Below the pieces are notes generated by a model that had not been told where the DNA came from, made no database searches, and saw only the letters and a list, made by a program, of their open reading frames with translations. Shown in pieces: positions 41,785 to 58,117 of a DNA stretch of 64,000 nucleotides. The DNA comes from Gemmatimonadales bacterium (GTDB lineage Bacteria > Gemmatimonadota > Gemmatimonadetes > Gemmatimonadales > GWC2-71-9): positions 187,398 to 251,397 of the forward strand of contig DASYEH010000014.1 in NCBI GenBank assembly GCA_036499125.1. Direction: 5' to 3'. The translations under genes and the position numbers were made by a program. Every line of letters starts with the position of its first letter. Positions within the stretch are counted from its first letter, which is position 1.

Positions 41785-42274
41785 AGGGCGCCGCCCGTTC
41801 TGGGCGGTGATCGTGCTGGTGGTCATCCTTGACCGGATCACCAAGCTGCTGGCGGTGGCCCATCTGGCGGGCCAGCCGCGCAACGTGCTTGGCGACACGG
41901 TGCAGCTGCGGCTGGTCTTCAATCAGGCCGCGGCCTTTGGCCTGAGCCTCGGCAGTTTCCAGCGCTGGCTTTTCCTGGGCATCGCTGTCGCCGCGATCGT
42001 CTGGCTCTATACGGCGTCGCGGCAGGCATCGGCGACTGACTGGCTGCGGCAGTGGTCGGTGGCGCTGGTGGCCGGGGGTGCGGCGGGTAATGCGGTCGAT
42101 CGGATTCTCTCGGCGCGCGGGGTGGTGGATTTCATCGACGTGGGCCTCGGTGCGTTGCGCTGGCCGACGTTCAATGTGGCCGACATTGCCGTGACCTGCG
42201 GCGCGGTGGCGCTTGCCTTCTCGCTCTGGCGCGAGGACTCGCGTCGCGCGGCCGCTGCGGCGACGGCGCCTTGA
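41768..42274 (+). CDS. lspA: Lipoprotein signal peptidase (signal peptidase II)
   Basis: Internal ATG 41768. ILDRITK, FNQAAAFG, GAAGNAVDRI, VVDFID, FNVADIAV. The ileS...lspA linkage is conserved. Confidence 0.85.
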   Translation: MPSGGEGRRPFWAVIVLVVILDRITKLLAVAHLAGQPRNVLGDTVQLRLVFNQAAAFGLSLGSFQRWLFLGIAVAAIVWLYTASRQASATDWLRQWSVALVAGGAAGNAVDRILSARGVVDFIDVGLGALRWPTFNVADIAVTCGAVALAFSLWREDSRRAAAAATAP

Positions 42275-42284
42275 TCGGCGCACC

Positions 42285-43283
42285 ATGATCTTCTCGGTCG
42301 CCGTCCCGGCTACCGAACGGCTCGACCGCTTCCTGGCCGACCAACTTGGCATGTCGCGGACTCAATCCGCGCGACTGGTCGCCGAAGGATGCGTTGCCGT
42401 GGCTGGTAAAGCCGCGCGGGCGTCGCGGACGATGGTGTATCAGGAAGTGGTCGACATCACTGAGCCGGATCGTCCGCCACCGCGTCAGTTCATGCCGCGG
42501 GAGCTGGACCTGTCGGTCGTGTATGAGGACGAACACCTGGCGGTGATCGACAAGCCCGCTGGACTCGTCGTTCATCCGGCGCCCGGTCATTGGGACGACA
42601 CCCTCGTCAACGCCCTGGTCGCCCGCGGCACGACGCTCGCTGGCGGCGCGGAAGGGCGGCCCGGCATTGTCCATCGGCTCGACCGCGACACGTCGGGACT
42701 GATCCTGGTGGCCAAGAGCGAAGTCGCGCATCGCAAGCTGAGCGCAATGATCGCGGCCCGCCGCGTCACCCGGGTCTATGCGGCGCTGATCTGGGGGCAC
42801 CTCGACGCCAGCCCGCTCGTCATTGATGCCCCGATCGCCCGCGACCTCCGGGACCGCAAGCGGATGGCGATACTAGCCGATGGCCGCCGGTCGCGGACCG
42901 ACGCCTTCGTGGCGGCCCGCCTGGGGTCGATGGATCTGGTTCGCCTCGAGCTGCACAGCGGCCGCACCCACCAGATCCGGGTCCACCTGGAGTCGGTTGG
43001 GCATCCGATTGTCGGCGACCCCGTCTACGCTGGCGGTGGGTCACGGCGGATTTCCGGACCGGAGCGGCTGGAAGCCCGGCGGTTGGAGGCGCTGGCGCCC
43101 CGGCAGGCGCTCCATGCGGCGCTTCTGGCGTTCCGCCACCCGATCACCGCCGAACCGCTTCGGGTAACCGCGCCGTGGCCGGCAGACCTCTGGCCGCTGC
43201 TGGAAGCCACCGTCGGGGCCGGGGTGGTTGCCGGCCGCGAGGTGGCGCTGCAGGCTCTGGGATTCTTCCCCGATGATGGCTGA
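42285..43283 (+). CDS. rluD: 23S rRNA pseudouridine synthase, RluD/RluA family
   Basis: Internal ATG 42285. S4 domain (RLDRFLADQLGMSRTQSARLV), catalytic HRLDRDTSGLILVAKS, and HQIRVH. Confidence 0.9.
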   Translation: MIFSVAVPATERLDRFLADQLGMSRTQSARLVAEGCVAVAGKAARASRTMVYQEVVDITEPDRPPPRQFMPRELDLSVVYEDEHLAVIDKPAGLVVHPAPGHWDDTLVNALVARGTTLAGGAEGRPGIVHRLDRDTSGLILVAKSEVAHRKLSAMIAARRVTRVYAALIWGHLDASPLVIDAPIARDLRDRKRMAILADGRRSRTDAFVAARLGSMDLVRLELHSGRTHQIRVHLESVGHPIVGDPVYAGGGSRRISGPERLEARRLEALAPRQALHAALLAFRHPITAEPLRVTAPWPADLWPLLEATVGAGVVAGREVALQALGFFPDDG

Positions 43284-43638
43284 GGCCGGTGCGGGGATCA
43301 GCGGTATCGTGGTCCAGTCCATGGGGTCGCGTTGGCTGGTGCCGGTTGCAAGCGTGATTGAGGTGCTCCGCGACGCCCGGCTGATCCGGGTTCCCGGCGG
43401 GGTGCCGGCCGTCCGGGGGCTGGCCAATCACCGGGGGCGGATCCTGACGGTCGCTGATCCGATCCGGGCGCTGGAGCTCCCTGGCGACAGCGGAGCGGCC
43501 CGGGAAGTGGTGGTAGTAGAGTGGGCCGGACGCCGGTTCGGGCTGGCGGTGGACGGCGTGGTGGAGCTGGGCCGCGAGGCGCGCACGGGCCTTGCAGAAA
43601 TCGACCTCGAACGGATCGCAGCGGCAATCTTTGCCTGA
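43273..43638 (+). CDS. cheW: Chemotaxis coupling protein CheW
   Basis: Internal ATG 43273, overlapping the rluD end by 11 nt. IRVPGGVPAVRGLANHRGRILTVADP and FGLAVDGVVEL match the CheW-like domain. Confidence 0.8.
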   Translation: MMAEAGAGISGIVVQSMGSRWLVPVASVIEVLRDARLIRVPGGVPAVRGLANHRGRILTVADPIRALELPGDSGAAREVVVVEWAGRRFGLAVDGVVELGREARTGLAEIDLERIAAAIFA

Positions 43639-43654
43639 CGACTCTGGGGGAACA

Positions 43655-44020
43655 ATGGGACAACGGATCCTGATCTGTGACGATGCGATCTTCATGCGGA
43701 CGATGATCGCGGACATTCTCACCGGCGCCGGTTACGAAGTGGCCGGCGAAGCGGAAAGCGGGCTGCAGGCGGTCGAGCGCTACAAGAGCGTGAAACCGGA
43801 CCTGGTCACGATGGATATCGTGATGCCCGACATGGGCGGCATCGATGCGGTCAAGGCGATCGTCGCCGCCGACCCGAACGCCCGGATCCTGATGTGCAGC
43901 GCCATGGGTCAGCAATCGCTGGTGGTCGAGGCGATCCAGGCCGGCGCCAAGGATTTTGTGGTCAAGCCGTTCCAGCCGGCCCGGGTCCTCGAGGCCGTTC
44001 AGCGCGTCCTGGCGGGATGA
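43655..44020 (+). CDS. cheY: Chemotaxis response regulator CheY (single receiver domain)
   Basis: GGGGG RBS before ATG 43655. ILICDDAIFMR, phospho-acceptor DLVTMDIVMPDMGG, SAMG, and FVVKPF. Confidence 0.9.
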   Translation: MGQRILICDDAIFMRTMIADILTGAGYEVAGEAESGLQAVERYKSVKPDLVTMDIVMPDMGGIDAVKAIVAADPNARILMCSAMGQQSLVVEAIQAGAKDFVVKPFQPARVLEAVQRVLAG

Positions 44021-45522
44021 CTGACGCGCGGCGCGCCCGGTACGTCGCGCTCTTCGCGACCGAAGCGCGCTCGCTGTTGAGCGGTGCGCGTCGTGCGCTC
44101 GATCGGTGGCACGACAACCCCGACGATGCCGATCCGGCTGAAGAAATTTTCCGGGCGCTGCATACCGTCAAGGGAATGGCCGCCTCGCTGGAGTTTGCTG
44201 AGGCCGCCGAACTGGTCCACGCCACTGAGTCCACCCTGAGCGACGTCCGGCGCGGCGACACCGCTGTCACTACCGCCTGGCTTCACGATTTCGCCATCGA
44301 GCTTGATGCGGTCACGGCCAGCTGCGAGCGGGCGGTGGACGACGCCGGTGGCACGCCGGTCGCGGCGAACTCGTCGGCCCCCCGAGGTCCGCGCATCGTC
44401 CGCGTCGACCTCGATCGCCTCGACGCACTGATGGCCGACCTCGGCGGGCTGGTCACTGCACGGCAGGAACTGGAGCGTCGTGCCGACGCCGACGCGCTGT
44501 CGCCCATCGCGCAGGCAGCAATGCAGATGGCGCGGCGGCTCGATACGCTGCAAGCGCGCATCCTGGATGTCCGCCTGGCGCCGCTCGCCGAGGTGCTTGA
44601 GCGGGCACCACCGCTGGTGCGTGACGTCGCGCGCCAGTTGGGGAAGGATGTGCAGGTCGACATCACGGGCGACACGCTCGAAGTCGACCGCGCCATCCTC
44701 GATCAGCTCGCCGAGCCGCTGCTGCACCTGCTGCGCAACGCCGTCGATCACGGCATCGAAACGCCCGAGGTGCGTCGGGCAGCCGGCAAGCGCCCGGTGG
44801 GACGCATCGCGGTCGCGGCACGCCAGGACGGCGACGCGGTTGTCCTGGAAATCACCGACGATGGCCGCGGCGTCGATCGCGAGGCCGTGGCTGCTCGCGC
44901 CCGCGCCCTGGGGATGCTTGATGCCGATGCCACGCTCACCGATGACGGTCTCCTCGGCCTGCTTGAGCGGCCGGGCTTCTCGACCGCGTCGAGAGTCACC
45001 GATATCTCCGGCCGCGGCGTCGGCCTCGATGTCGTGGTCGCGCGGATGCGCGACATCGGCGCGTCGCTGACGCTCACCACTGTGCTCGGGCACGGCACCG
45101 TCTTTTCCTTGCGACTGCCGACGCGGCTCGGGATCGTCCGTGCCCTGGTCACCCGCGTGGGTGACGAACGGTACGTCATGCCATTGATGCACGTGGTCGA
45201 ACTGGTGCCGTGGGCACGCGAGCTGGTGACTCAAGTGAACGGTCGCGCAACTCTGCGGGTGCACGATCAGGACCTGCCGATCGTGGACTTGCGGCGCCTG
45301 GTGCAGTTTCGCGGTGACGACGCGCCGGCGCACCGTCCGGCAATCGTGGTCGAGGCGAACGGTCAGCGAATGGCGTTGCTGACCGACGCGATCCTCGGCC
45401 AGGTGGACGCTGTGGTGCAGGCAATCGACCGACCGGCGGGGCTGGCGCGCTGGATTACCGGCGCAACGGTGCTGGATGACGGGCGGCCAGCGTTGTTGAT
45501 GGATCTGGCGAGTGTGGTGTGA
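44017..45522 (+). CDS. cheA: Chemotaxis histidine kinase CheA
   Basis: ATGA overlap with cheY. HPt HTVKGMAASL, N-box HLLRNAVDHGIE, G1 DDGRGVD, G2 GRGVGLDVV, and a C-terminal CheW-like domain. Confidence 0.9.
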   Translation: MTDARRARYVALFATEARSLLSGARRALDRWHDNPDDADPAEEIFRALHTVKGMAASLEFAEAAELVHATESTLSDVRRGDTAVTTAWLHDFAIELDAVTASCERAVDDAGGTPVAANSSAPRGPRIVRVDLDRLDALMADLGGLVTARQELERRADADALSPIAQAAMQMARRLDTLQARILDVRLAPLAEVLERAPPLVRDVARQLGKDVQVDITGDTLEVDRAILDQLAEPLLHLLRNAVDHGIETPEVRRAAGKRPVGRIAVAARQDGDAVVLEITDDGRGVDREAVAARARALGMLDADATLTDDGLLGLLERPGFSTASRVTDISGRGVGLDVVVARMRDIGASLTLTTVLGHGTVFSLRLPTRLGIVRALVTRVGDERYVMPLMHVVELVPWARELVTQVNGRATLRVHDQDLPIVDLRRLVQFRGDDAPAHRPAIVVEANGQRMALLTDAILGQVDAVVQAIDRPAGLARWITGATVLDDGRPALLMDLASVV

Positions 45523-45524
45523 TG

Positions 45525-45613
45525 ATGGCTGATGGCAGATGGCAGATGGATGCACTTGTGCAGAACGCTGCGGAGTCGGGCCGACGCAGCCATTAGCCAT
45601 CAGCCATCAGCCC
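45525..45613. repeat. Inverted arrays of the heptamer ATGGCTG/CAGCCAT flanking an inner hairpin (cheA-cheC intergenic)
   Basis: Left arm: atggctg atggcag atggcag atggatg (45525-45552). Right arm: cagccat tagccat cagccat cagccc (45587-45613). Inner stem GCTGCG/CGCAGC (about 45568-45590). Confidence 0.85.
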
Positions 45614-45635
45614 AAAAACAATCCGGAGAACGCGC

Positions 45636-46259
45636 ATGACCTCACAGACGAACGACCTCGACAGCCTCCGCCGCGACGCGCTCGGCGAAGTCGCCACCAT
45701 CGGTGCAGGACACGCCGCGACGGCGCTGTCGCAGCTCACCGATCGACGGATCATGATCTCGGTGCCGCACGTCCATCGGATGTCGTACGCCGAAGTGCCG
45801 TCGATGGCCGGTGTCTTCGGCGATCACATCGCCGTGGTCGCGATGCGGATGCTGGGCGACCTCACCGGCCGGGCGCTGCTGATCTTCGGTGAACGCGATG
45901 CCACCCGTCTCTGCGACCTGATCCTGCGCCGCCCGCCCGGCCCGCCGCGGGTGCTCGGTGAGCTGGAGCAGTCGGGACTCAAGGAGGTTGGCAACATCGT
46001 CTGCTCGGCGTACCTGACAGCGCTCAGCAACTTCATGGGGATGATGCTCCTGCCGTCGGTGCCTTCGTTGACAATCGGGCCGACTGATCACGCCGTGGCT
46101 GCGACAGTGGACGCGGCTGAGGCAAGCAGCGATCTGGTGTTCTGCGTCGACACGGCGTTTCGTGCCGAGGGCGCGGAGGACCCGCTGACTGGCGCGTTTC
46201 TGCTGATGCCCGATCAGGCATCAGTGCGCGCCATCCTCGAGGCGATCCGGCTCGACTGA
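45636..46259 (+). CDS. cheC: CheC-family CheY-P phosphatase
   Basis: GGAGA RBS. Two CheC repeats: DALGEVATIGAGHA...(22 aa)P and SGLKEVGNIVCSAY...(22 aa)P. Only the second keeps the E-x2-N consensus. Confidence 0.8.
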   Translation: MTSQTNDLDSLRRDALGEVATIGAGHAATALSQLTDRRIMISVPHVHRMSYAEVPSMAGVFGDHIAVVAMRMLGDLTGRALLIFGERDATRLCDLILRRPPGPPRVLGELEQSGLKEVGNIVCSAYLTALSNFMGMMLLPSVPSLTIGPTDHAVAATVDAAEASSDLVFCVDTAFRAEGAEDPLTGAFLLMPDQASVRAILEAIRLD

Positions 46260-46260
46260 G

Positions 46261-47394
46261 ATGCCGGCGGCACGCTCTCGCGACGCGCAGATCGTCGCTG
46301 CACTGGGGCGCCGTCTGGCTGCGGCCGACGCAACCACGCTCACCAACTTCGCGTGGTTCGCGGCGCGGCGTGGTGCCCATCCCGCTGCCCTCGAGGCGGC
46401 TCGACGAGCCGTCACGCACGGTGACGCACCCCGGGCCGCATGGCGCGCATTGGAGCGGCTGGCGGCCGGCCGCACGGATGGCATGCTGCTCACTGCCGAC
46501 GCCGCCGAGCCTGCGGCGCCTGAGCCACCCCGCAACCCGCTCGCAGCAGCCGTGTCAGCCCACGCCCAGGGCCAGCTCGCCGTGGCCGAGGCATGCTATC
46601 TCGCCGCGCTGCCGCAGGACGCGCTGGCCGCCGCTGCATCAAACGGGCTGGCTGTGTTGCACGAGCAGCGTCGTGAGCGCGCCGCCGCCGACGCCGCCTG
46701 GCAGCACTCCGTCGCCGAGGGCAACGTGGCCGGCCGGCATAACCAGGCGTTGGCAATGCTGCGGCGGGGATTGCCACATCGAGCTCGGGCCAACCTCGCA
46801 CCGCTGGTCGTCGGCGCTGGCGCGCCCGCCGTGCTGCGCTTCCTGGCGGGGTACGCCGCGCTCGCTGACCAGGATCCCCATGCGGCGATCGCCATCCTGA
46901 CGACCCCCGGGCTCGACGAATCGGCGCGGGCACAGTTCACGCTCGGACTCGCGTGTGAGCGACTGGGCCGGCATGACGAGGCGCTGGTCGCCATCCGCCG
47001 CGCACTGCTGATGTCGCCCTGGTACGCACCGCAAGTCTGGTTGCTGCAGGCGACCGCCGACGCAGCGCTGACGGAAATTCCGGCGGACCTGGGCGAGTCG
47101 GGCGCGCTGGCGCACACCGCCGATGTGCTGCTGTCACTGGGCCGGTCATTGCTGCAGACCGGACACCTGGGCGAAGCACTTGCCGTGTTCGATCAGGTCC
47201 TGACGCAGCAGCCGTCCGAGCCCGCAGCCCTCTTTCATCGCGGCGTCGTGCTGGCCAAGCTGCGGCGATACGGCGAAGCACTTGACGACTGGGAACGCGC
47301 CGGACAGGCTGATCCCGCCAGTGAACTTGGCGACGCGAGCCTGCGGCATGCGCGCTCGGCGCGGCAACTCGCCACGCTGTTCGCGAGTCGCTGA
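46261..47394 (+). CDS. TPR-repeat protein
   Basis: Starts 1 nt after the cheC stop. Ala/Leu-rich helical repeats, with recognisable TPR units near the C-terminus (LGRSLLQTGHLGEALAVFDQVLTQQPSEPAALFHRGVVLAKLRRYGEALDDWERA). Confidence 0.6.
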   Translation: MPAARSRDAQIVAALGRRLAAADATTLTNFAWFAARRGAHPAALEAARRAVTHGDAPRAAWRALERLAAGRTDGMLLTADAAEPAAPEPPRNPLAAAVSAHAQGQLAVAEACYLAALPQDALAAAASNGLAVLHEQRRERAAADAAWQHSVAEGNVAGRHNQALAMLRRGLPHRARANLAPLVVGAGAPAVLRFLAGYAALADQDPHAAIAILTTPGLDESARAQFTLGLACERLGRHDEALVAIRRALLMSPWYAPQVWLLQATADAALTEIPADLGESGALAHTADVLLSLGRSLLQTGHLGEALAVFDQVLTQQPSEPAALFHRGVVLAKLRRYGEALDDWERAGQADPASELGDASLRHARSARQLATLFASR

Positions 47395-47395
47395 G

Positions 47396-48322
47396 ATGCA
47401 CGGGCCGCTGGATGAAATCGGCTTGATCGAAGTGCTGCAGTTGCTGCAGCGGGGACGGCGCAGCGGCGTACTCCGCGTGAGCGGGGCCGACGTCGACTTG
47501 CCGCATGACATCGTCATTGCCGAAGGCCTGATCGTCGCGCTCCTCCCGGAAGCCGGTGACGCTGCCACTCTTGCCGCCCTCGCGGCGCGCCACCTGGTCA
47601 CCAGCAGCGAGACCGCCGATGATCCGCTCCTGCTGGCCCAGCCGGCGGCGGCCGACGCGCGGGGGCAACTCGCTCGGCACGCGCTCGCCACCATGATGCA
47701 CTGGCAACGTGGCCGGTTCGACTTTGCCGAAACACCGCCCGCCGCCGGTCCGCTGTCGCTTTCGCCGGAAGCGCTGGTGTTCGACCTGGTGAGTGCCGAG
47801 AGCCAACGTGTCGAACTCGCCGAGGCCCTCAACGATTTTCACGCGGTCCCTGACTTTGTCGCCGATGACCTGCTGGCCCAGGGGGCAATCCCGGAGCTGA
47901 CGCCGCGTGACTGGCGCATCCTCGACGCGATCGACGGTCGTCGCGACGTCGCAGCGGTCGCGGCTGCCGTCGCCGAGCCGATCGCGGAGGTAGCGGCCCA
48001 GATTCAGGCGCTGCAGGCTGCCGCTATACTTGAGCTCCGTCGGCCAGCCGCCGACGGCGGCGTGGCGGCCCGGGCGGCGATCGAAGCGGGACGGTACGAG
48101 GAGGCAGCCACCTTGCTGCGTGCCCGGCTCGCGGAACACGGTGGCGACGGTGAAATGTGGCGCGCACTCGGACTCGCCGAAGTGGGCGCAGGGCGATTCG
48201 AACACGCCATCGACGCGTGGCAGACCTGGCGCGATGCTGATCCCGGTCGTGCCGGGGACGCTGTTGCACTGATGCAGGCGGCCCGGACCATGGTGGAGGC
48301 ACTGCGCGACGCTCGTGAATGA
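47396..48322 (+). CDS. PATAN/DUF4388 domain protein with C-terminal TPR-like region
   Basis: ATG lies 1 nt after the upstream stop. The N-terminus GPLDEIGLIEVLQLLQRGRRSGVLRV fits the DUF4388 signature (G-L-x3-L-x-D/E-hLQ-x-h-x4-G-x-L). The C-terminus has RYEEAATLLRARL... helices. Confidence 0.65.
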   Translation: MHGPLDEIGLIEVLQLLQRGRRSGVLRVSGADVDLPHDIVIAEGLIVALLPEAGDAATLAALAARHLVTSSETADDPLLLAQPAAADARGQLARHALATMMHWQRGRFDFAETPPAAGPLSLSPEALVFDLVSAESQRVELAEALNDFHAVPDFVADDLLAQGAIPELTPRDWRILDAIDGRRDVAAVAAAVAEPIAEVAAQIQALQAAAILELRRPAADGGVAARAAIEAGRYEEAATLLRARLAEHGGDGEMWRALGLAEVGAGRFEHAIDAWQTWRDADPGRAGDAVALMQAARTMVEALRDARE

Positions 48323-49064
48323 CCTGCCCGCAACCCCCGGACGTCACGGCTTCGCCTTTCTTGAACTCGGCGAACGTCTGCGCCAGCGTGGCCAGTTCGC
48401 GGCGGCGGCGTCGGTCGCGTCGGCCGGACTGAGCCGATATCCCTCGGTGGCCGACGCCCACGATCTGCTGGCCCGGATTCGCGCCGACCAGGGCGACGAT
48501 GCCGGCGCCGTCGCCGCGTGGCATGCCGCGCTGGAATGCGATCCGGTGCACATCGGCGCGCGAAAGGGACTCGCCTTCGTCGCGTTCCGGGCTCACGACT
48601 TCGTCAATGCAGAGCGCCATCTCGACCTCGCCGCAACGCAGGCGCCCCACGACGCATCGGTCCTGGCGGCACTTGACCGGGTGCGCGCCGCAGCACGGCA
48701 GCGCCCCGGCGACGAATCGCCGGAGCCGGGCGATCCTGGCAGCGGGCTGATCCTCTACGACATGCAAGGGCTTCGGCTTGCCGGCAGCATTGACCAGGAC
48801 AGCGACGATGCGGACGCTGACGCGGCGGCCGCGACGGGCGCCGGACTCACCAGTGAATCGGTCCGGGTGGCCCGCCTGCTGCAGCTCGGCGCGGTCCGCC
48901 ATCTCATCATCGAGGCGGCCGACGCTCGCGTCATCATGATGCCACTCACCGCCGACGCCGCGTTGCTGCTCCATCGCGGGGCTACAACACCGCTGGGCCG
49001 TCTGCTGGCTCTTGGCTCGCGCGCAACGGTCGCTGCCCGGGCGTGGCTGGAGCGAATGGCATGA
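48315..49064 (+). CDS. TPR N-terminal half fused to a Roadblock/LC7 (MglB-like) C-terminal half
   Basis: 8-nt overlap. The N-terminal half has TPR-like helices. The C-terminal half (GLILYDMQGLRLAGS...VRHLIIEAADARVIMMPLTADAALLL) follows the Roadblock alpha-beta pattern. Domain call made by eye only. Confidence 0.55.
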   Translation: MNDLPATPGRHGFAFLELGERLRQRGQFAAAASVASAGLSRYPSVADAHDLLARIRADQGDDAGAVAAWHAALECDPVHIGARKGLAFVAFRAHDFVNAERHLDLAATQAPHDASVLAALDRVRAAARQRPGDESPEPGDPGSGLILYDMQGLRLAGSIDQDSDDADADAAAATGAGLTSESVRVARLLQLGAVRHLIIEAADARVIMMPLTADAALLLHRGATTPLGRLLALGSRATVAARAWLERMA

Positions 49065-49414
49065 GCATCGCTCGCTGGGAGAATGCCTTGCGTGAAGTGA
49101 CGCGCGTACCGGGTGTGCTGGGCGCGCTGATCATCTCTGCTGACGACGGTCTGGTGGTTGCTGAGTCGTCCATGGATGAACTTGCGACCGCCGACGTGGC
49201 AGCCTTGTCGGCAGCACTGATTCTTCGCGCGTCGCGCTGCATGAGCGCGATGGGGAAGGGCGCCCCCGGGAGCGTGCACCTGGTCGGCGACGCTGGCGCA
49301 CTCCTGGCCGTCGCTGGCCCGGCACCGCTCTGGCTGGTGGCCGTCGCGCATGGCGACGCCGAACTCGGCCGCGTGCGCTTGTTGTTGCGCGACTTTGCCG
49401 TGGTGCTCGCCTGA
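49061..49414 (+). CDS. Roadblock/LC7 domain protein (MglB-like)
   Basis: ATGA overlap. VPGVLGALIISADDGLVVAES...ADVAALSAAL...LVGDAGALLAV...LWLVAVAH, and the size (117 aa), fit Roadblock/LC7. Confidence 0.7.
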   Translation: MSIARWENALREVTRVPGVLGALIISADDGLVVAESSMDELATADVAALSAALILRASRCMSAMGKGAPGSVHLVGDAGALLAVAGPAPLWLVAVAHGDAELGRVRLLLRDFAVVLA

Positions 49415-49881
49415 TGCGCGTGCTGGAGCCATGGGTCACGGCACCGTTGACCGAGTTCCTGCGAGAATCGTCGGCCCGGCTCGCACTGGTGATGACCAGT
49501 TCGGGACAAGTCATCGCACAGCACGGGTTCACCCGGTCGGTTGATGTCATGTCGGCGGCCGCGCTGGGTGCCGGCATTCTCGCTACCACAACCGAGATCG
49601 CGACGATGGTCGACGCGCCCGCCGGATTCGGCGCGGTCGTGCACCAGGGTGCAGCGCAGGGGATCTGGCTCGCCGGATTCGACACCCCGCGCGGGCGGTG
49701 GATCGGACTGGTAGTCTTTGGCCCCGAGTCGACGGTCGGGTTGGTGCGAATGTTCTTCGCCCGGTTTGCCGAACAGGTGGCGGCGGCGACGCCCGCCGTG
49801 GTGCCGGTCCGCGATGTCCTCGCTGAGGGCTTCGAGCGCGAGCTCGACGACTCGCTGCGCGCCCTGTTCGGGAGCCGTTGA
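49414..49881 (+). CDS. Roadblock/LC7-like protein (divergent, third consecutive copy)
   Basis: TGATG overlap. ARLALVMTSSGQVIAQHG...DVMSAAALGAGILATT...GIWLAGFDT...IGLVVFG shows the same strand/helix periodicity as the preceding gene. Confidence 0.5.
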   Translation: MRVLEPWVTAPLTEFLRESSARLALVMTSSGQVIAQHGFTRSVDVMSAAALGAGILATTTEIATMVDAPAGFGAVVHQGAAQGIWLAGFDTPRGRWIGLVVFGPESTVGLVRMFFARFAEQVAAATPAVVPVRDVLAEGFERELDDSLRALFGSR

Positions 49882-49883
49882 CG

Positions 49884-50489
49884 ATGGCACGCATGGATGA
49901 AGCGCAACGTGACCTGACACTCACCGTGGTGGTGTACGGTGCGCCGCGGGTCGGCAAGACGTCCATCTTGCACTGCATTCAGGACCGGGTCGCGCCGGAG
50001 CGGCGCACCGGGCTGTCACCGCTCGGCACCGACTCCGGAGTGGCCACACTGCTCGACTGGCTGCCGCTGGAACTCGGTACGATCGGCGGCTGGAACGCGC
50101 GGGTCCACCTGTACGCCATTCCGGATCAGCGGCACGCGGATTCGACGCGACGGGTCATCCTGGGCGACGCGGATGGCGTGCTCTTCGCCGCCGACGCGCA
50201 GGCCAACCGCAGTGGGGATAACCTCGACGCGTTGCGCAGTCTGCAGAGCAATCTCGAGGATGCCGATGGCCTGCTGCGTCAGGTTCCGACCGTGTTCATG
50301 TACACCAAGCATGACTTGCCGGCCGAGCTGCTGCTGTCACGACCGGCGCTTGACCAGGAGCTGAACCCCGCCGACGCGCCGAGCTTTTCCGTCAGTGCGC
50401 TGCGCGGCGAGGGCGTGCTGGAAGCCTTGCACGCGACCATCAGCATGGTGATGCGGCGCCTGGTTGGCCCCGGAACGCGAGCCTCGTGA
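49884..50489 (+). CDS. MglA-like Ras-superfamily small GTPase
   Basis: G1 GAPRVGKTS, G3-equivalent LYAIPDQ (MglA has TVPGQ), G4 TKHD, G5 SALRGEG. ATG 49884 has a GGGAG-like RBS; TTG 49878 (TTGA overlap) is the alternative. Confidence 0.75.
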   Translation: MARMDEAQRDLTLTVVVYGAPRVGKTSILHCIQDRVAPERRTGLSPLGTDSGVATLLDWLPLELGTIGGWNARVHLYAIPDQRHADSTRRVILGDADGVLFAADAQANRSGDNLDALRSLQSNLEDADGLLRQVPTVFMYTKHDLPAELLLSRPALDQELNPADAPSFSVSALRGEGVLEALHATISMVMRRLVGPGTRAS

Positions 50490-50490
50490 C

Positions 50491-52452
50491 ATGGCGCTCC
50501 TGAATCCGCACGCGCGGTTCGCGTCGTTCGTCGTCGGCTCGTCCAATCGGCTGGCAGCCACGGCCGCCAAGACGGTGGCCGAGGCGCCCGGCGCCGCGTA
50601 CAACCCGCTCTTCTTCTATGCCCGGCCCGGCCTGGGCAAGACGCACCTGCTCAGCGCAATCGGGCACGAAGCGCAGACGATCGATCCGTCACGCGTGGTG
50701 GAATACGTCACGGTCGATGACTTCGTCGAGGCATACCACACTGCGCTCGCGGCGGGACAGGCTGAGGCGTATCGGCGTCGCTTCACCGACGCCCATCTCG
50801 TGCTCCTCGATGACGCTCAGCTGCTCAGCGATCAACGTGAGCTGCAATCCGAGTTGCTCCGGCTGATTGACCTGCTGATGGCAGCCGATCGCCAGATCGT
50901 CCTGGCGAGCGACCGTCCGCCGGAAGAGATCCAGTCGCTCGACGAGCGGCTGATCCGTCGCTTTGCCGGCGGACTGGTCATCGACATTGGCGCGCCGGAC
51001 TATGAAACGCGACTCGCAATCCTGGCCCGCCGGGCGACGGAACGACAGACGACCTTTGCGCCGGAGGTGCTGGCCACCGTCGCGGAACTGCCGATTACGA
51101 CCGTCCGGGAACTGCTCGGTGCGCTGAACCGCCTGATTGCCCAGCAGGCGGTCGCGGGTGCGCCGGTGGGTGTCGCCGAAGCGCGCCGAGTGCTGGCTGC
51201 ACTGGGCCATGGCAAGGCCTCACCAGCGCCGGTTCTGGCTGACCTCGATCTGCTCCCGCCACCCGCCGCACCGGGGATCCACGAAGAGTTCACGTCATTC
51301 CTGTCGGACGTGTCCACGGCCGTCTCGCAGCAGGTGGATCGTTGGCGGCAGCGGGTCACCGAAGCGGCGTTGCGTCTTGGGGGCGAAGGATTCCACACCG
51401 GCCGCCTTGATGCGCTCCTCGCCCGCGAGATTGCCGTCGATCCGGCCGCTGCGCTGGCCGCATTCGAGGCCGATGTCGATCTGCTTCGACAGTTGCAGGC
51501 AGAGATCGCGCTGCTGGCGCCGACGCTGCTGATGGAGGCGGCGCTGCATGATCCCGATCGGGTCGCGGAGGCCGAACTGCTGGTGGTCGAGGCGCGCGAA
51601 AGCGGCGAGCCGTTACCGGCGCCGCTGGCGCGGTACACCCTCGCACAGTTCGCCGAAGGAAGCGGCACGCGGCCCGTGGTTGAAGCGATCCGGACCGTCG
51701 CCGAAGGCCCGGGGCAGCGTTACAACCCGCTGGTGATCGTCGGCAAGTCGGGCGTGGGCAAGACGCACTTGCTCCATGCGTTGGGCCACGCGCTCAAGGC
51801 AACCGGGCTCAATCGGGTCGCCGTGTTTGACGGCAAGGATTTTGTCGACGGCCTGGTCACCGCACTGGGTGATGGCACGATTGCCCGGTGGCGGCAGCGG
51901 TTGCGGCGAGCTGATGCATTCCTGCTCGACGATGTCGGCGTGCTTGCCGGGAAGGAACGCAGTCAGGAAGAGTTGTACCTGCTGTACAACCTGATGCTCG
52001 AGTCCGGTCGGCAGATGGCATTCACCGCCAGCGTGACGCCGGCGCACCTCACTGGCTTCGAACCCCGACTGGCGACGCGCTTGGCCGGCGGGCTGGTGGT
52101 GGAACTCGGTCCGCCTGATCGCGACGCCCGCATTCATGAGGCCACGCGCCTGCTCGGCGTTGGTGTCGCTGATCCCGACCTGATCGAGTATCTCGCTGCG
52201 CGGCCGGCCGGCTCGCTGCGCGAACTGCAGCAGCTGATTCAGCGCCTGGTCGCTGCGGCGGAGCAGCGAGAAACGGCGCTGACGATGGACGTGGCACGCG
52301 CCATCCTCGAAGGCAATCGCGTCGCCATCGTCCGCCAGCCGCGGCGCAGCAGCGGATTGCTGGCGCCCGGCAGTGGTGCCATTCGTTCGCGCGAGAAGAT
52401 GATCGAGACGTGGCCGGACATCTCCGAACGCATGCTTGAGGAGTGGACCTGA
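50491..52452 (+). CDS. Protein with two tandem DnaA-type (domain III) AAA+ ATPase modules and no DnaA domain IV
   Basis: Module 1: NPLFFYARPGLGKTHLL, VLLDDAQLLSDQRELQ, IVLASDRPPEEI, RLIRRFAGGLV, TVRELLGAL. Module 2: NPLVIVGKSGVGKTHLL, FLLDDVGVLAGKERSQEEL, RLATRLAGGLV, SLRELQQL. Linker of about 170 aa. No DnaA-signature HTH at the C-terminus. Confidence 0.8.
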   Translation: MALLNPHARFASFVVGSSNRLAATAAKTVAEAPGAAYNPLFFYARPGLGKTHLLSAIGHEAQTIDPSRVVEYVTVDDFVEAYHTALAAGQAEAYRRRFTDAHLVLLDDAQLLSDQRELQSELLRLIDLLMAADRQIVLASDRPPEEIQSLDERLIRRFAGGLVIDIGAPDYETRLAILARRATERQTTFAPEVLATVAELPITTVRELLGALNRLIAQQAVAGAPVGVAEARRVLAALGHGKASPAPVLADLDLLPPPAAPGIHEEFTSFLSDVSTAVSQQVDRWRQRVTEAALRLGGEGFHTGRLDALLAREIAVDPAAALAAFEADVDLLRQLQAEIALLAPTLLMEAALHDPDRVAEAELLVVEARESGEPLPAPLARYTLAQFAEGSGTRPVVEAIRTVAEGPGQRYNPLVIVGKSGVGKTHLLHALGHALKATGLNRVAVFDGKDFVDGLVTALGDGTIARWRQRLRRADAFLLDDVGVLAGKERSQEELYLLYNLMLESGRQMAFTASVTPAHLTGFEPRLATRLAGGLVVELGPPDRDARIHEATRLLGVGVADPDLIEYLAARPAGSLRELQQLIQRLVAAAEQRETALTMDVARAILEGNRVAIVRQPRRSSGLLAPGSGAIRSREKMIETWPDISERMLEEWT

Positions 52453-54074
52453 TGGCCATCAAGGGTTCACTCAAGGAAGCGTCGCTCCCCGATGTCGTCC
52501 AGCTGCTTTTCCTGGGCCGGCGCACCGGCTGTCTTGCCGTCGCCAACGACCGGAACTTCGGCTCGATCTGGTTCGAGGAAGGATGGATCACCTTTGCCGG
52601 GATGGTCACGCGTCTCGACCGGATCGGCGAACGCCTGGTCGCGGCCGGCAAGTTGACGCCGGAACAACTCGACGCGGGCATGGCAGCGCACAGCGCCACC
52701 CCCGGCACGCGCCTCGGTGAGATGCTGGTGCATCTGGGTCATGTGACCGCCGGCGAGCTCGCTGCGGAACTCAAGCTGCAGGTCGAAGAGGCGGTGTACA
52801 CGCTCTTCAGCTGGACCAGCGGCACCTTCTCCTTTGAAGTGGGCGCGCGGCCTGATACACCGGATGTCGCGCTGCGACTCAATCCCGAAGGCCTGCTGCT
52901 CGAAGGCGCACGCCGCGTGGACGAGTGGAGCATCATCGCCAAGAAGATCACGACCGTCGAGGCCGTCTACGGGTTCGAGGGCGAGGCAATGACGCCGCCG
53001 GTTGGCGATGCACCGGTGATGGAGTCGGAGCGCCGCGTGATGCCGTTCATCAATGGCGTCAACACCGTGCGCGAGATCGTCGATCAGACCGGATTGAGCG
53101 AGTTCGAAGTGTGTCGGGTGCTCTTTGGCCTGCTGTCTGCGGGGCGGCTCCGGCGCCTGGCAACAGCGCCACCGCCGCCGCCGCGCGAAGATCTTTCCCG
53201 CGTCGACGAGCATCGCAATCTCGGCATCGCCTTCTATCGGACCGGGATGTACACCGAATCCGAGCGGGAGTTCCGCCGCGTCGCGGAACTGCGGCCTACC
53301 GATGCGATCGCGCCATTTCACCTCGGCGGCATCGCGCTGCGGCAGGCCCGCTGGCAGGACGCCGTCGACCAGCTCCATCGCGCGGCCGAGCGTGACGGCG
53401 GCCGCGTGGCCGTGGTACACAATCTGGCGTTGGCGCTCGAAGCCGCCGGGCGGCTGGACGAGGCCGACGCGGTGCTGGTCGCCACTGTGCAGCGTCATCA
53501 TCACGACGCACGCCTCTGGACCGCGTGGGGATTGCTTGCCTTGCGCCGCAACGAAGCACCGCAGGCGTTGGAACGTTTTGCGCGCGCTCGCGACCTGCTG
53601 GGTCAGGAGACGCCACCGGCGCGCTGGTTCTGGGGATGCGGCTGGGCACAGGCATTGTCCGAAGCGTGGCCCGATGCGATCGGTACGGTGCGGGAAGGGG
53701 TCAACGCGTATCCCGATCATCCGGTGCTTCGCACCACCCTTGCCGTGTTGCTCGAAGGATCTGGTGAAGTCGGAGAAGCCGAGGCGCACTTGCGTCATGC
53801 GCTCGGAGAAGAGCCGACCATTCCACAGATTTCCAAGAATCTCGGTGACTTGCTCTATCGCGCAGGACGTTGGGACGAAGCGGAAGAATCGTACGATCGC
53901 GCCACCCGGCTCGCGCCGACGCTCGGGGACGACATCTACTTCAAGCTGGGCAACCTGGCGTGTCGGCGCGGCGATCTGGTGACGGCTCGGCGGCACTGGG
54001 AGCAGGCGGTGACGCTGAATCCCGAGCACGCACTCGCGCGTGCGAACCTTGCCGGATCGGGCACCGCCGCATGA
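52452..54074 (+). CDS. PATAN/DUF4388 domain (with helical insertion) fused to a C-terminal TPR array
   Basis: TGATG overlap (alternative start 52443). MAIKGSLKEASLPDVVQLLFLGRRTGCLAV is the DUF4388 signature. A helical insert (RLGEMLVHLGHVTAGELAAELKLQ) is followed by at least 6 TPR-like units. Confidence 0.7.
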   Translation: MAIKGSLKEASLPDVVQLLFLGRRTGCLAVANDRNFGSIWFEEGWITFAGMVTRLDRIGERLVAAGKLTPEQLDAGMAAHSATPGTRLGEMLVHLGHVTAGELAAELKLQVEEAVYTLFSWTSGTFSFEVGARPDTPDVALRLNPEGLLLEGARRVDEWSIIAKKITTVEAVYGFEGEAMTPPVGDAPVMESERRVMPFINGVNTVREIVDQTGLSEFEVCRVLFGLLSAGRLRRLATAPPPPPREDLSRVDEHRNLGIAFYRTGMYTESEREFRRVAELRPTDAIAPFHLGGIALRQARWQDAVDQLHRAAERDGGRVAVVHNLALALEAAGRLDEADAVLVATVQRHHHDARLWTAWGLLALRRNEAPQALERFARARDLLGQETPPARWFWGCGWAQALSEAWPDAIGTVREGVNAYPDHPVLRTTLAVLLEGSGEVGEAEAHLRHALGEEPTIPQISKNLGDLLYRAGRWDEAEESYDRATRLAPTLGDDIYFKLGNLACRRGDLVTARRHWEQAVTLNPEHALARANLAGSGTAA

Positions 54075-54907
54075 GCGACGACCTGATGGAACCGTTGGAG
54101 CGCGAGTTCGCGCGGCTGAAGGAAGTGATTGCTGCCGGGCCGCCGCCAGCAGAACGAGGCGCCGTGCGCGCCGAGATCGTCGCTTTGTTCCGGCGGACTG
54201 AGGTGGCCGTCGCCGAGCTCACCGGATTCAAGGAGCGGATCCGCGAGCTGGTCGACGCCGTCAAGGCGCTTCCCGACGCGCCCGCTATATCGGTTCGCCA
54301 CGATCATATCGGCGCGTCCACTCATATCGAACGCGGCTGGAGCGCGATTGCCTCGGGCGACTGGGCGATGGCCCAGCGTGAGCTGCAAACGGCCGCGTCG
54401 CTCGATGGTACCAACGTGGTGGCGCCGGCGCTGCTCGGCTGGGCGCTCATGTACGAGAATCGTTATGACGAAGCGCTCCAGATCTGCCTGCAGGTGCTCC
54501 TCCGCGAGCCAGAACAGGGGCTCGCCCGTGTGGCGGTCGGGGCGATCTGCCTGCGCAAGGGGATCGTCGGCGAGGCGATCGAACACCTCTCTCGCGCACT
54601 GGCTCGGTCAACTGATGCCCGAGTCTCGTTGTACGCGAACTTCTGGCTCGGCGCGGCGTATCTCGAGCGGGAGATGCACAACGATGCCATCGAGTTCCTG
54701 CGTCGCGCCGTGTCGCTGGGGCCCAACCTCGCGGAAGGATGGACCGAGCTCGGCCGCGCGCTCTGGCTTCGCGGGCGGCACGCCGAGGCCAATGAAGCCT
54801 GGCAGGTCGGGGCCGGAATCCGCCATTCGCCGCATGCCCGCCGGTGCAGCGAGTTGATTGCGCTTGTTGCTGGGGGAGGGACGCCGCCACGTTCGCCCTT
54901 CGCCTGA
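54071..54907 (+). CDS. Coiled-coil plus TPR-repeat protein
   Basis: ATGA overlap. Internal ATG 54071 of ORF 53870..54907. TPR-like units (WAMAQRELQTAASLD, YDEALQICLQVLLREP, GEAIEHLSRAL, HNDAIEFLRRAVSLGP, HAEANEAWQ). Confidence 0.6.
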   Translation: MSDDLMEPLEREFARLKEVIAAGPPPAERGAVRAEIVALFRRTEVAVAELTGFKERIRELVDAVKALPDAPAISVRHDHIGASTHIERGWSAIASGDWAMAQRELQTAASLDGTNVVAPALLGWALMYENRYDEALQICLQVLLREPEQGLARVAVGAICLRKGIVGEAIEHLSRALARSTDARVSLYANFWLGAAYLEREMHNDAIEFLRRAVSLGPNLAEGWTELGRALWLRGRHAEANEAWQVGAGIRHSPHARRCSELIALVAGGGTPPRSPFA

Positions 54908-55794
54908 TCGTTGCGCTCGCCCAGCTCGCGGCTCCGCTTCCAGAGCGGCGCATCGAGGTGGGCGACGTGACAGTGATTGCCGACCAGGCTCATATCGGCT
55001 TGGCCACCTCGCTCGGCGAGGCCGCCGATGTACCGCATGACTGGATTGGCCTCGGGCGTCTCGATGCCGGGCGGCAGACCATCGTTCTGGTCACCGATCA
55101 ACGCGATTTCGCGCGGGTCTCGCATGGCAGGATTCCCAGCTGGGGCGCTGGTGCGACCTTTCCGGGGAGTCACCTGATCATCATCCGGCTCGACGGCGGC
55201 GACCCGTTCCAGACGCTGGCCCACGAGCTCGCGCACGTGGCGCTGCACCAATCGGTGCATCAGCGGGTGCCGCTCTGGTTTGACGAGGGGTACGCGGTGG
55301 TGGCAGCGCATGAGTATGGCCGTTTTGCCGCCTTGCGTCTCAACCTTGCCGTGGCGATGGGCCGGGTGCCGGAACTGCGGGCGCTCGATGCGGCGTTAAG
55401 GGGAACGGATACCGAGGCCGAGTCTGCCTACGCCCTGGCCGGGTCGGCGGTGGCCGAGTTGGGGCGCCGGAGCCGGAATGGCCAGTTGAGCGAGTTCATG
55501 GCGCTGCTGCGGGCCGGACTTCCCTTTGATGAGGCCGTCCGGCGTGGCACGGGCCTCACGGTCGATCAGTTTGAGGAGCGTTGGATCGCGTCGGTCCGAT
55601 CGCACTACAACTGGCTTGTCTGGCTGGCTACCGGGGGGATGTGGTTGATCGTGGCCTTGGGGCTCAGCGTTGCGGCGGCGTCGCGAAAGCGGCGAGAAGC
55701 CCCTCGGCGGGCGGCCCTGGACCAGGGGTGGCCGGAGCCGGTCGAAGATGACGAAACGATTACGATTGAAGCTGTTGGACCACCTTCAACTTGA
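54844..55794 (+). CDS. MA-clan zinc-metallopeptidase-like protein (HELAH-x16-E) with C-terminal TM anchor
   Basis: HELAHVALH at 55222-55236 and the Glu of WFDEGYA at 55285. C-terminal helix LVWLATGGMWLIVALGLSVAAA. Start uncertain (ORF start 54844 overlaps the upstream gene by 64 nt). Confidence 0.6.
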   Translation: MQRVDCACCWGRDAATFALRLIVALAQLAAPLPERRIEVGDVTVIADQAHIGLATSLGEAADVPHDWIGLGRLDAGRQTIVLVTDQRDFARVSHGRIPSWGAGATFPGSHLIIIRLDGGDPFQTLAHELAHVALHQSVHQRVPLWFDEGYAVVAAHEYGRFAALRLNLAVAMGRVPELRALDAALRGTDTEAESAYALAGSAVAELGRRSRNGQLSEFMALLRAGLPFDEAVRRGTGLTVDQFEERWIASVRSHYNWLVWLATGGMWLIVALGLSVAAASRKRREAPRRAALDQGWPEPVEDDETITIEAVGPPST

Positions 55795-56022: not shown

Positions 56023-56096
56023 GGGCGAATAGCTCAGCTGGTTAGAGCGCCTGCCTTACACGCAGGATGTCGGGGGTTCGAATCCCTCTTCGCCCA
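56023..56096 (+). tRNA. tRNA-Val (anticodon TAC)
   Basis: Hand-folded: acceptor GGGCGAA/TTCGCCC, D arm GCTC-AGCTGGTTA-GAGC, anticodon arm CCTGC-CTTACAC-GCAGG, T arm GGGGG-TTCGAAT-CCCTC, discriminator A. Confidence 0.9.
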
Positions 56097-58003: not shown

Positions 58004-58077
58004 GGGGTTGTAGCTCAGTTGGTTAGAGTGCCGCACTGTCACTGCGGAGGTCGCGGGTTCGAGCCCCGTCAGCCCCG
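58004..58077 (+). tRNA. tRNA-Asp (anticodon GTC)
   Basis: Hand-folded: acceptor GGGGTTG/CAGCCCC, D arm GCTC-AGTTGGTTA-GAGT, anticodon arm CCGCA-CTGTCAC-TGCGG, T arm GCGGG-TTCGAGC-CCCGT, discriminator G. Confidence 0.9.
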
Positions 58078-58082
58078 TATTA

Positions 58083-58117
58083 CACCCCGTCCGATGTCGG
58101 ACGGGGTGCTCTGTTTT
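58083..58117 (+). terminator. Rho-independent terminator after tRNA-Asp
   Basis: caccccgtccg-atgt-cggacggggtg (11-bp GC-rich stem) followed by ctctgtttt. Confidence 0.65.

Follow-up and report, generated by a model that had tools for sequence, protein, structure and literature searches.

Why should the genes of a chemosensory pathway, those of a small GTPase with its Roadblock partners and a gene for a protein made of two DnaA-type ATPase domains stand in a single string? This question is raised by a 64-kb stretch of a Gemmatimonadales metagenome-assembled genome (MAG), here called the window, in which 14 tightly packed genes on the + strand occupy positions 43273-55794. The reading that we tentatively prefer, and that quite possibly holds, is built on gene content and gene order. 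The string would encode a CheC/CheD-type (F1-like) chemosensory pathway that is functionally coupled to a module for spatial organization, and the window would carry a reduced form of this string, which is kept across the phylum Gemmatimonadota. On the side of the pathway, CheW, CheY, CheA and CheC would act together, joined in most relatives by CheR, CheD, CheB and a second CheW (CheW2). The module would consist of a long TPR protein, two PATAN-TPR proteins, three Roadblock proteins, one of them MglB, the GTPase MglA, the double DnaA ATPase, a second TPR protein and a zincin.

Domains were called with Pfam profiles and NCBIfam, and with phmmer searches of PDB sequences where Pfam proved weak or silent. 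tRNAs were called with ARAGORN and Rfam. The features of the string and its 3' boundary are the following (aa, amino acids; nt, nucleotides).

43273-43638, +, CheW-like coupling protein, short (121 aa); PF01584, 1.1e-13, profile positions 2-90 of 138
43655-44020, +, CheY, single-domain response regulator, 121 aa; Response_reg, 2.3e-29; best NCBIfam match CheY_Halo, 2e-36
44017-45522, +, CheA histidine kinase; Pfam Hpt, H-kinase_dim, HATPase_c and CheW (P1, P3, P4, P5)
45523-45635, +, cheA-cheC spacer, 113 nt; hairpin of short repeats of the GATGGCA/TGCCATC type
45636-46259, +, CheC-type CheY~P phosphatase; PF04509, 1e-17, in two stretches; NCBIfam CheC_Thtogales, 3e-39
46261-47394, +, TPR protein 1, 377 aa; TPR families
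47396-48322, +, PATAN (DUF4388)-TPR protein 1; PF14332, 4.1e-12 (46.6 bits); TPR_16/14/19; no receiver
48315-49064, +, fusion of TPR and Roadblock/LC7; TPR_2/TPR_14; Robl_LC7, 5.7e-7, at residues 144-218
49061-49414, +, stand-alone Roadblock/LC7 protein; Robl_LC7, 5.2e-7; PDB 7f8m, a Robl_LC7 protein, 8e-9
49414-49881, +, MglB homologue (Roadblock-fold GTPase-activating protein); phmmer against PDB: Myxococcus xanthus MglB, 1.6e-7, Thermus thermophilus MglB, 2.7e-5
49884-50489, +, MglA-family small GTPase with degenerate motifs; phmmer against PDB: M. xanthus MglA, 2e-30, T. thermophilus MglA, 6e-27
50491-52452, +, double DnaA-domain-III AAA+ ATPase, 653 aa; Bac_DnaA twice, 8e-86; no Bac_DnaA_C
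52452-54074, +, PATAN (DUF4388)-TPR protein 2; PF14332, 6.8e-33 (113.7 bits); many TPR families
54071-54907, +, TPR protein 2; TPR_2, 8e-19, and others
54844-55794, +, membrane-anchored HExxH zincin (Peptidase_MA_2), last gene; PF13485, 7.9e-10
56023-56096, +, tRNA-Val; ARAGORN and Rfam RF00005 (74.7 bits); 3' boundary of the string

An earlier note on this DNA had spoken of 15 genes, while its own list, like ours, contains 14. All of its domain calls were reproduced, each by a profile or a PDB sequence search, with some difference in the route. The PATAN proteins and two of the Roadblock proteins score above threshold (the Pfam cut-offs are 25 bits for DUF4388 and 23 bits for Robl_LC7), whereas the third Roadblock protein stays below it (1.5e-3; 18.6 bits) and the GTPase has no Pfam match; both were recovered by phmmer against PDB. 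This third Roadblock protein aligns to M. xanthus MglB over residues 13-152 and matches the NCBIfam MglB model at 9e-6. Its gene lies directly upstream of the GTPase gene, with a 4-nt overlap or a 2-nt gap, and a classical mglB-mglA pair is thus present. The remaining junctions are as tight as had been described: all are overlaps or gaps of at most 16 nt, with the 113 nt between cheA and cheC as the sole exception, and the start codon for PATAN-TPR protein 2 overlaps the stop codon of the ATPase gene (TGATG). Of the CheC/CheD-type set, CheA, CheW, CheY and CheC are present in the window, while CheD, CheR, CheB and the P2 domain of CheA are absent from it and present in relatives with a fuller layout. 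An HTVKG motif was read from the translated P1 domain of CheA. The absence of P2 is evident from the alignment with the 659-aa CheA of one such relative (L044), which has a P2 match: it spans only residues 5-103 and 285-659. Window CheA carries no receiver domain, and the stand-alone CheY is the sole receiver of the string. Both PATAN proteins are fused to TPR and give no Response_reg match, so that neither is a PATAN-receiver protein of the PatA type.

Is this arrangement peculiar to one genome? Homologues of the ATPase were sought in a scan with a single genome for each species and turned up in 213 species; the best 80 of these were used, all of them Gemmatimonadota, with 77-41% identity. 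A metagenome scan seeded with divergent members of the ATPase family yielded 75 further loci. Genes were tallied over the 149 loci with a full-length ATPase anchor, the denominators being the loci informative for each gene. In those genome loci that are long enough, all 14 genes, together with the upstream rluD, stand in the same order and on the same strand, and the 75 metagenome loci give the same collinear picture. The mglA gene is found directly upstream of the ATPase gene in 136 of 136 loci, mglB upstream in 130 of 130, the PATAN-TPR gene directly downstream in 114 of 114, and the genes for CheA, CheC and CheY upstream in 68 of 69. Start/stop overlaps of 1-10 nt between genes of unrelated families are kept in the genome loci down to 41% protein identity, and metagenome loci at 28-37% identity to P0171, a divergent query, keep the same layout. 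A shared order and strand in 149 independent loci is far beyond chance. The earlier note had named a scattering of these genes in related genomes as the result that would speak against it; instead, the che, Roadblock/MglB-MglA, PATAN/TPR and double DnaA-like genes form one co-oriented, overlapping and conserved string.

The window does not carry the string at its full extent. More distant relatives, L165 and L166 included, have a layout that is about 5 kb longer: genes for CheR, CheD, CheB (receiver plus methylesterase) and CheW2 are located between those for PATAN-TPR protein 2 and TPR protein 2, CheA has a P2 domain, TPR protein 1 measures about 900 aa (897 aa in L044) and MglA is canonical. 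Here the core is flanked by che genes in both directions. Among 75 loci informative on the downstream side, CheR was found in 46, CheD in 47 and CheB in 47. A 505-aa open reading frame (ORF) in L044 (13382-14899) was considered as a single CheD and rejected, because its N-terminal portion is translated in a wrong frame; what the locus really contains is cheR, in another frame, and a short cheD. The clade of the window lacks CheR, CheD, CheB, CheW2 and the P2 domain of CheA. The string of the window is a secondarily reduced derivative of the fuller Gemmatimonadota string, from which the adaptation genes were lost.

This bears on the question of receptors. No methyl-accepting chemotaxis protein (MCP) signalling domain, CheR, CheD, CheB methylesterase or second CheW was found within the 64 kb by tblastn and by Pfam searches of the large ORFs, in agreement with what had been said before of MCP, CheR and CheB, and no MCP signalling domain is present in the window or in any of 155 loci. 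It is common for che operons to have their receptors encoded elsewhere. Since CheR, CheD and CheB act on methyl-accepting receptors, this is presumably the case here, too. The terms receptor-less and self-contained, which the earlier note had applied, find no support in a reduced string whose relatives keep CheW2 and the receptor-modifying enzymes within it.

Besides the full, the reduced and a che-less layout, an MglA-less layout occurs in two MAGs (L161, 500-12100; L164, 1350-12120, GCA_964404765.1). P0171 represents the most divergent branch of the ATPase and has a 66%-identical relative in L161, which belongs to a MAG labelled Candidatus Cloacimonetes bacterium 4572_55 (placed by NCBI in the Cloacimonadota, FCB group). 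Both loci read CheW-CheY-CheA(P2)-AAA_22-CheW-domain protein-CheC-TPR (about 820 aa)-PATAN-double DnaA. Neither contains a gene for MglA or a Roadblock protein, and the flanking genes differ on both sides. CheY, the most conserved gene of the string, has 73-93% identity in the Gemmatimonadota loci and still 69% in L161/L164. As these two loci carry the order che-TPR-PATAN-double DnaA without MglA or Roadblock, this is probably the older association. We infer that an insertion specific to Gemmatimonadota brought in mglA together with the three Roadblock genes; alternatively, these may have been lost in the L161/L164 lineage. The pair of genes that stands inside the che genes here (L161, 3743-5493; L164, 4339-6011) and also in L166 (7074-8902), encoding an AAA_22/AAA_16 ATPase of about 270 aa and a CheW-domain protein of about 300 aa, is absent from the window.

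How could the parts work together? In the coupling that we favor, receptors encoded elsewhere would control CheA and CheW, CheA would phosphorylate the single CheY and CheC would reset it. CheY~P would then act on the scaffold of PATAN-TPR and Roadblock proteins. Such an arrangement would correspond to a PATAN-receiver regulator of the cyanobacterial Che-like systems divided over separate proteins, and it would be analogous to the action of Frz on MglA/MglB in Myxococcus. The scaffold, in turn, would set the place and time at which MglA and the DnaA-type ATPase, the latter in an ATP-dependent manner, assemble, presumably at a cell pole, and thereby organize a polar structure. The output of the pathway would then be a device for polarity or spatial order, and not solely a motor. 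Here we infer the direction of signal flow, the contacts between the proteins and the cellular target alike.

A number of observations weigh against such a coupling. CheC/CheD-type che sets normally control flagella. The window contains a gene for a FliA/WhiG sigma factor (22509-23345, +; TIGR02479, 195 bits, above the cut-off of 189.6 bits), which suggests that the organism has a flagellar regulon, and cultured Gemmatimonas possesses one polar flagellum (PMC9862903). Given the type of che set, the sigma factor and the polar flagellum, CheY~P may simply go to the flagellar switch. Contact between CheY and the PATAN proteins is a conjecture, because the latter are devoid of receiver domains. 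Moreover, parts of the string can be uncoupled. In L153 (metagenome contig Ga0224512_10000017, 1-16000) the core is whole and MglA canonical, and che genes are missing, the order being rluD-TPR-PATAN-TPR/Roadblock-Roadblock-MglB-MglA-ATPase-PATAN-TPR-zincin. In L162/L163 (3765-12094), from a Gemmatimonadota MAG, a gene for an 867-aa TPR protein is followed by the ATPase gene, and che, PATAN and Mgl genes are all absent. Finally, loss of the adaptation genes and degeneration of MglA go together in the tally (canonical MglA with CheB in 45 loci, degenerate MglA without CheB in 24, one exception); as both coincide in one clade, the two probably arose in one event, and the tally should not be read as a correlation seen repeatedly. 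Two further details of L162/L163 are recorded for completeness. The TPR-ATPase pair is preceded, at a distance of about 5 kb, by two bactofilin genes, and the 200-aa gene following the ATPase gene of L162 was rejected as an MglA, as it shows no similarity and begins with a hydrophobic leader.

Several of these observations nourish the alternative that survives best, which we consider possible but on the whole unlikely. It holds that the che genes serve ordinary flagellar chemotaxis and that the core positions the receptor array or the single polar flagellum, being co-transcribed with che genes in the manner of parC and parP, so that information flows from the core to placement. The CheC/CheD/CheR/CheB set and the CheA P2 domain of the full relatives, the FliA/WhiG factor and the single polar flagellum of Gemmatimonas would all be expected, and in L153 the core does occur by itself. 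Even the position of one gene pair fits: in some layouts the genes for the AAA_22 ATPase and the CheW-domain protein of about 300 aa are located between cheB and cheW or after cheA, and parC and parP occupy such a position in che operons of Vibrio. What this explanation leaves aside is the attachment of che, TPR, PATAN and ATPase genes to one another across a phylum-level distance and in another genomic context, as well as the invariable presence of PATAN, which elsewhere is an output domain of Che-like pathways. Nor does any locus contain a flagellar structural or MCP gene.

What, then, is the double DnaA-type ATPase, the protein on which the collection of loci was anchored? Its N-terminal half matches domain III of Bacillus subtilis DnaA at the sequence level with 1.5e-48. 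In the AlphaFold (AF2) model (pLDDT 81.7), an AAA+ domain (residues 1-236) is followed by a disordered stretch, a helical bundle (264-371), a second AAA+ domain (380-607), a disordered linker and two short C-terminal helices; with a pTM of 0.46, the placement of the domains relative to each other is unreliable. The best Foldseek matches are structures of DnaA domain III (8bv3: target TM 0.93, root-mean-square deviation 1.7 Å, 39% identity). Conservation of motifs was computed over 136 orthologues. Both Walker A motifs are conserved at 95% or more. In the N-terminal half the same applies to Walker B, DRPP, box VII (D.RL..R..GGL), PD.ETR.AIL and sensor II (VREL.G..NR); the C-terminal half retains, along with its Walker A, one Walker B aspartate and R...R...GLV, and its Walker B is partly degenerate. 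The two C-terminal helices are conserved as well (EK....W.....R). As EK....W(P) is invariant also in the alignment that includes the MglA-less branch, the partner of this tail is unlikely to be MglA. DnaA domains I (DnaA_N, PF11638) and IV (Bac_DnaA_C, PF08299), which canonical DnaA proteins carry, gave no match in the ATPase, and it lacks domain II. Because domains I and IV are absent, the protein is not a replication initiator. We also rejected it as an Hda: with 653 aa and two copies of domain III, as opposed to a single domain of about 230 aa, it scores 162 bits with TIGR03420, below the cut-off of 194.8 bits, and 411 bits with the DnaA family TIGR00362.

A bold proposal can be derived from these features, one that we regard as unlikely though worth stating. 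The double DnaA protein would be a new signalling ATPase, an AAA+ protein of the initiator clade that was recruited from the replication origin to chemosensory output as an ATP-driven assembly switch, docked by PATAN/TPR proteins and, in Gemmatimonadota, gated by MglA/MglB. Such a GTPase-ATPase cascade would mark the pole and might even talk back to DnaA and the cell cycle.

Decidedly improbable in our view is the explanation that the protein acts on replication itself, either capping or co-assembling with filaments of DnaA-ATP or stimulating hydrolysis of DnaA-bound ATP as Hda does, and so couples the chemosensory or polarity state to the cell cycle. The close sequence and structural likeness to domain III, the retention of Walker A and B, the box VII arginines and sensor II, and a score with the DnaA model that far exceeds that with the Hda model all agree with it. 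So does the neighborhood: in the window and in L044 the string adjoins genes of the division and cell-wall (dcw) cluster, with mraW-ftsI-murE downstream, and the PATAN domain of Anabaena PatA is reported to have divisome proteins as partners (PMC7380572). However, DnaA-box binding and helicase loading are not to be expected of a protein without domains I and IV, the stretch that corresponds to the initiator-specific motif, at about residues 61-100, falls short of 95% conservation within the ATPase family, and adjacency of the ATPase gene to dcw genes is not kept outside the Gemmatimonadales, as it lies away from them in L161/L164 and in L162. Nothing in this analysis ties the ATPase to oriC.

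The GTPase deserves equal scrutiny, as the earlier note had taken it for a switch. Its membership in the MglA family is clear. The protein comprises 201-203 aa, the match to MglA covers its full length (residues 7-196) and the next PDB match is Rab27B at 0.11, while Pfam and NCBIfam returned nothing beyond noise even at E = 10, such that the identification is owed to the PDB sequence search. The switch residues tell a different story. The motifs read GAPRVGKTS, TDSGVATL, LYAIPDQRH and YTKHDL in the window, where full-layout relatives have, nearly invariantly, GPGRSGKTT, TQTDRTLF, LYTVPGQVY and YNKQDL. The P-loop GxxxxGK[ST] is present and Q82 is kept; NKxD reads TKHD, with K and D retained and N replaced by T. 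K142 and D144 are each found in 74 of 75 MglA orthologues. The catalytic and switch positions of window MglA are changed (G21P, R53V, T54A, T78A, G81D), whereas G21, R53, T54, T78 and G81 are canonical in all 42 full-layout genome loci. Note that the degenerate motifs also vary among close relatives of the window. The ORF of the degenerate MglA is intact, and its ratio of nonsynonymous to synonymous substitutions (dN/dS) is 0.12-0.21 in the clade of the window, compared with 0.01-0.06 for canonical MglA and 0.03-0.11 for MglB of the same-clade genomes. The degenerate MglA is under purifying selection, yet it is the fastest-evolving gene of the string. Judging from these motifs, MglA of the window clade would most likely serve as a non-cycling nucleotide-binding adaptor, and the ATPase, whose N-terminal site is fully intact, would be the remaining energy-using switch. 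One related gene departs further: the MglA-like gene of L039 (about 9386-9990) is short (189 aa), its NKxD region is lost (SPSATC) and its dN/dS relative to L009 amounts to 0.43. It may represent a frameshift, a pseudogene or an assembly error.

It follows from the lost catalytic residues, and from the existence of the che-PATAN-ATPase link without MglA, that a "GTPase switch machine" overstates the role of the GTPase in the window. For the same reasons we hold it very improbable that, as had been proposed, polarity is governed here by a self-contained machine in which a Che module devoid of receptors is joined to a functional MglA switch. The window does lack MCP, CheR, CheB and CheD and its genes are packed as one string; against this, CheB and CheD in 47 and CheR in 46 of the 75 relatives imply receptors elsewhere, and window MglA has neither R53, T54, T78 nor G81. 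Barely credible, finally, is the notion that the genes are neighbors by common descent alone and have no functional tie. Since rluD on one side and the tRNA/dcw region on the other invariably enclose the string within Gemmatimonadota, vertical inheritance could account for much of the collinearity, but the retention of 1-10 nt overlaps between unrelated families down to 41% identity, the unchanged layout at 28-37% identity to P0171 and the recurrence of the order che-TPR-PATAN-ATPase in a different context in MAGs outside those labelled Gemmatimonadota argue against it.

How does the string compare with known systems? According to the literature searched, systems in which a Che pathway is coupled to a module of MglA and PATAN are of a known kind. 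One precedent is Myxococcus, where the Frz chemosensory pathway acts on MglA/MglB (PMC3441718, PMC10329633). The M. xanthus system of Frz and MglA/MglB/MglC/RomR shares with the string the coupling of a Che-type pathway to an MglA GTPase, the position of mglB directly upstream of mglA and the presence of extra Roadblock paralogues. There, however, frz and mglBA reside at separate loci, whereas here a single string holds all genes. The string contains no CheA-receiver fusion of the FrzE type, no FrzZ/FrzX and no FrzCD-type receptor, and no RomR/RomX was seen. It adds PATAN-TPR, the double DnaA ATPase and a membrane zincin, and in the clade of the window MglA has lost its catalytic residues. The stand-alone Roadblock protein (49061-49414) was also considered as an MglC orthologue. 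This was rejected, since it shows no sequence match to MglC (PDB 7CT3/7CY1, PMC7949163) or MglB; in the PDB it matches only the Roadblock proteins 7f8m and 9jue, and a literature search on 7F8M returned nothing relevant.

The use of PATAN has its precedent in cyanobacteria, where PATAN-receiver regulators of Che-like systems act on the pilus motor (bioRxiv 2021.06.11.447907, PMC11181946). In the Tax/Pix systems (PixG, TaxP; PatA), PATAN is likewise encoded with cheY, cheW and cheA and links a Che-like pathway to a polar machine, there PilB1. In contrast, PATAN of the string is fused to TPR and not to a receiver, CheY stands alone and the cluster lacks an MCP, and the Tax/Pix operons have no counterpart of MglA/MglB or of the ATPase. 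A natural substitution at position 21 and a link to a TPR protein are features shared with MglA of Bdellovibrio bacteriovorus, which has S21, lacks an MglB, binds the TPR partner Bd2492 and acts at one fixed pole in a non-oscillating manner (PMC3983030). The string, by comparison, keeps a well-conserved MglB even though the MglA of the window has lost far more than G21, and the Bdellovibrio mglA locus is without che or DnaA-like genes. The actinobacterial conservon (CvnA kinase, CvnB Roadblock, CvnC, CvnD GTPase) likewise unites, in one operon, a histidine kinase with a Roadblock protein and a GTPase of the MglA family. It differs in that it employs a membrane sensor kinase instead of CheA/CheW/CheY/CheC, contains no PATAN, TPR or DnaA-type ATPase and has a GTPase of MglA Group 2. 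With DnaA domain III and Hda, the ATPase has in common the initiator-clade AAA+ fold, Walker A/B, box VII and sensor II; unlike them, it consists of two copies joined by a helical bundle of about 110 residues, bears a conserved C-terminal tail and is always encoded with signalling or scaffold genes, not with dnaN or replication genes.

The neighborhood has in part been recorded before. Wuichet and Søgaard-Andersen (2015; PMC4316618) noted PATAN genes in the vicinity of certain mglA genes of Groups 1 and 5, and their Table S2 gives 'PATAN>MglA>-PATAN>' for GAU_1409 (Group 1) and 'MglB>MglA>' for GAU_1115 of Gemmatimonas aurantiaca. At GAU_1409, as in the string, MglA is flanked by PATAN genes and one gene stands between MglA and the second PATAN, an equivalence that we deduce from Table S2. 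Because this unnamed gene sits at the position of the ATPase, the cultured G. aurantiaca very probably possesses the string. DnaA, CheA and chemotaxis do not occur in that paper, and its Table S2 omits intervening, Roadblock and che genes at GAU_1409. In searches of the literature for MglA, MglB or Roadblock in combination with DnaA, nothing linking them was found, and a search for Gemmatimonas with MglA returned no relevant paper. The earlier statement that no characterized MglA system is built in this way agrees with these searches. Within the literature searched, we found no description of the double DnaA-type ATPase or of the linkage to che genes. A double DnaA ATPase as a constant member, the physical fusion with a full complement of che genes and the range of naturally occurring layouts are apparently new.

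These layouts give the string its value for comparison. To our knowledge, nearly all that is understood of how MglA controls polarity comes from Myxococcus, in which years were needed to map the wiring between input and GTPase. Here, the wiring of chemosensory input to the GTPase module is written into one string, in at least 149 sampled loci and in a widespread soil phylum with cultured flagellated members. The string thus offers an independent test of Che pathways driving small-GTPase polarity switches, with a natural series of full, reduced, che-less and MglA-less forms to be compared and a lineage in which the catalytic residues of MglA are lost while the GTPase-activating protein stays conserved. 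A duplicated DnaA ATPase domain is its invariant partner, a protein of a kind not known to have any tie to polarity or chemotaxis. If it were true that this ATPase assembles at the pole or touches DnaA, a link between sensory signalling, polarity and replication would be opened.

Two parts of the string itself remain to be described. The last gene encodes a protein with a HELAH motif and a C-terminal hydrophobic (transmembrane) segment, WLVWLATGGMWLIVALGLSVAAA, both read from the translation, and a zincin gene occupies the same position in relatives. The cheA-cheC spacer, which had been described as structured, does fold into a long hairpin (-51.8 kcal/mol; z -3.4 relative to 200 shuffles, one of which was as good). 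This hairpin is not conserved in relatives, where the spacer comprises 4-113 nt of non-homologous content. In the reduced clade (window, L001, L007, L015, L018, L020, L022) the spacer consists of short-period tandem repeats forming hairpins down to -54 kcal/mol, and these repeat hairpins are unrelated in sequence between close relatives; in full-layout relatives it measures 4-20 nt. A conserved regulatory RNA was rejected on the grounds of these short or unrelated spacers, the lack of an Rfam family and the lack of a U-tract. The spacer looks like a hypervariable insertion site for hairpin-forming sequence.

At its 5' end no intergenic gap sets the string off, as the start of cheW overlaps the stop of rluD by 11 nt. 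Further upstream (38216-43283), ileS, a zinc-finger gene of the dksA/traR type, lspA and rluD overlap one another in a tight series that leads directly into cheW, and the transcript covering the string could thus have its start well before 43273. Scans for promoters and terminators inside the string yielded nothing above shuffle expectation, which is weak evidence in DNA with 66% G+C. Over the window, G+C varies between 64 and 70%. No second MglA or DnaA-like gene occurs within the 64 kb. Beyond the tRNA-Val gene follows, in a stretch of lower G+C (0.62), a gene on the + strand (56153-57943) whose 596-aa product begins with a hydrophobic leader and gives weak matches to TPR. It sits between tRNA-Val and tRNA-Asp, and a gene at the same position is present in most relatives (21-56% identity). 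The region 58004-62708 contains tRNA-Asp, a strong terminator-like hairpin (58083-58108) and then mraW, ftsI, whose product includes a PASTA domain, and murE; in the window, the interval from tRNA-Asp to mraW showed no mraZ. Well upstream of the string, at 14341-22320, lies an operon of the Bat/MoxR type, encoding an AAA_3 MoxR protein, a DUF58 protein, a BatA/VWA protein and a 1286-aa DUF4175 protein, and the block at 20-22 kb is distinguished by an unusual AT skew (+0.28) at 69% G+C.

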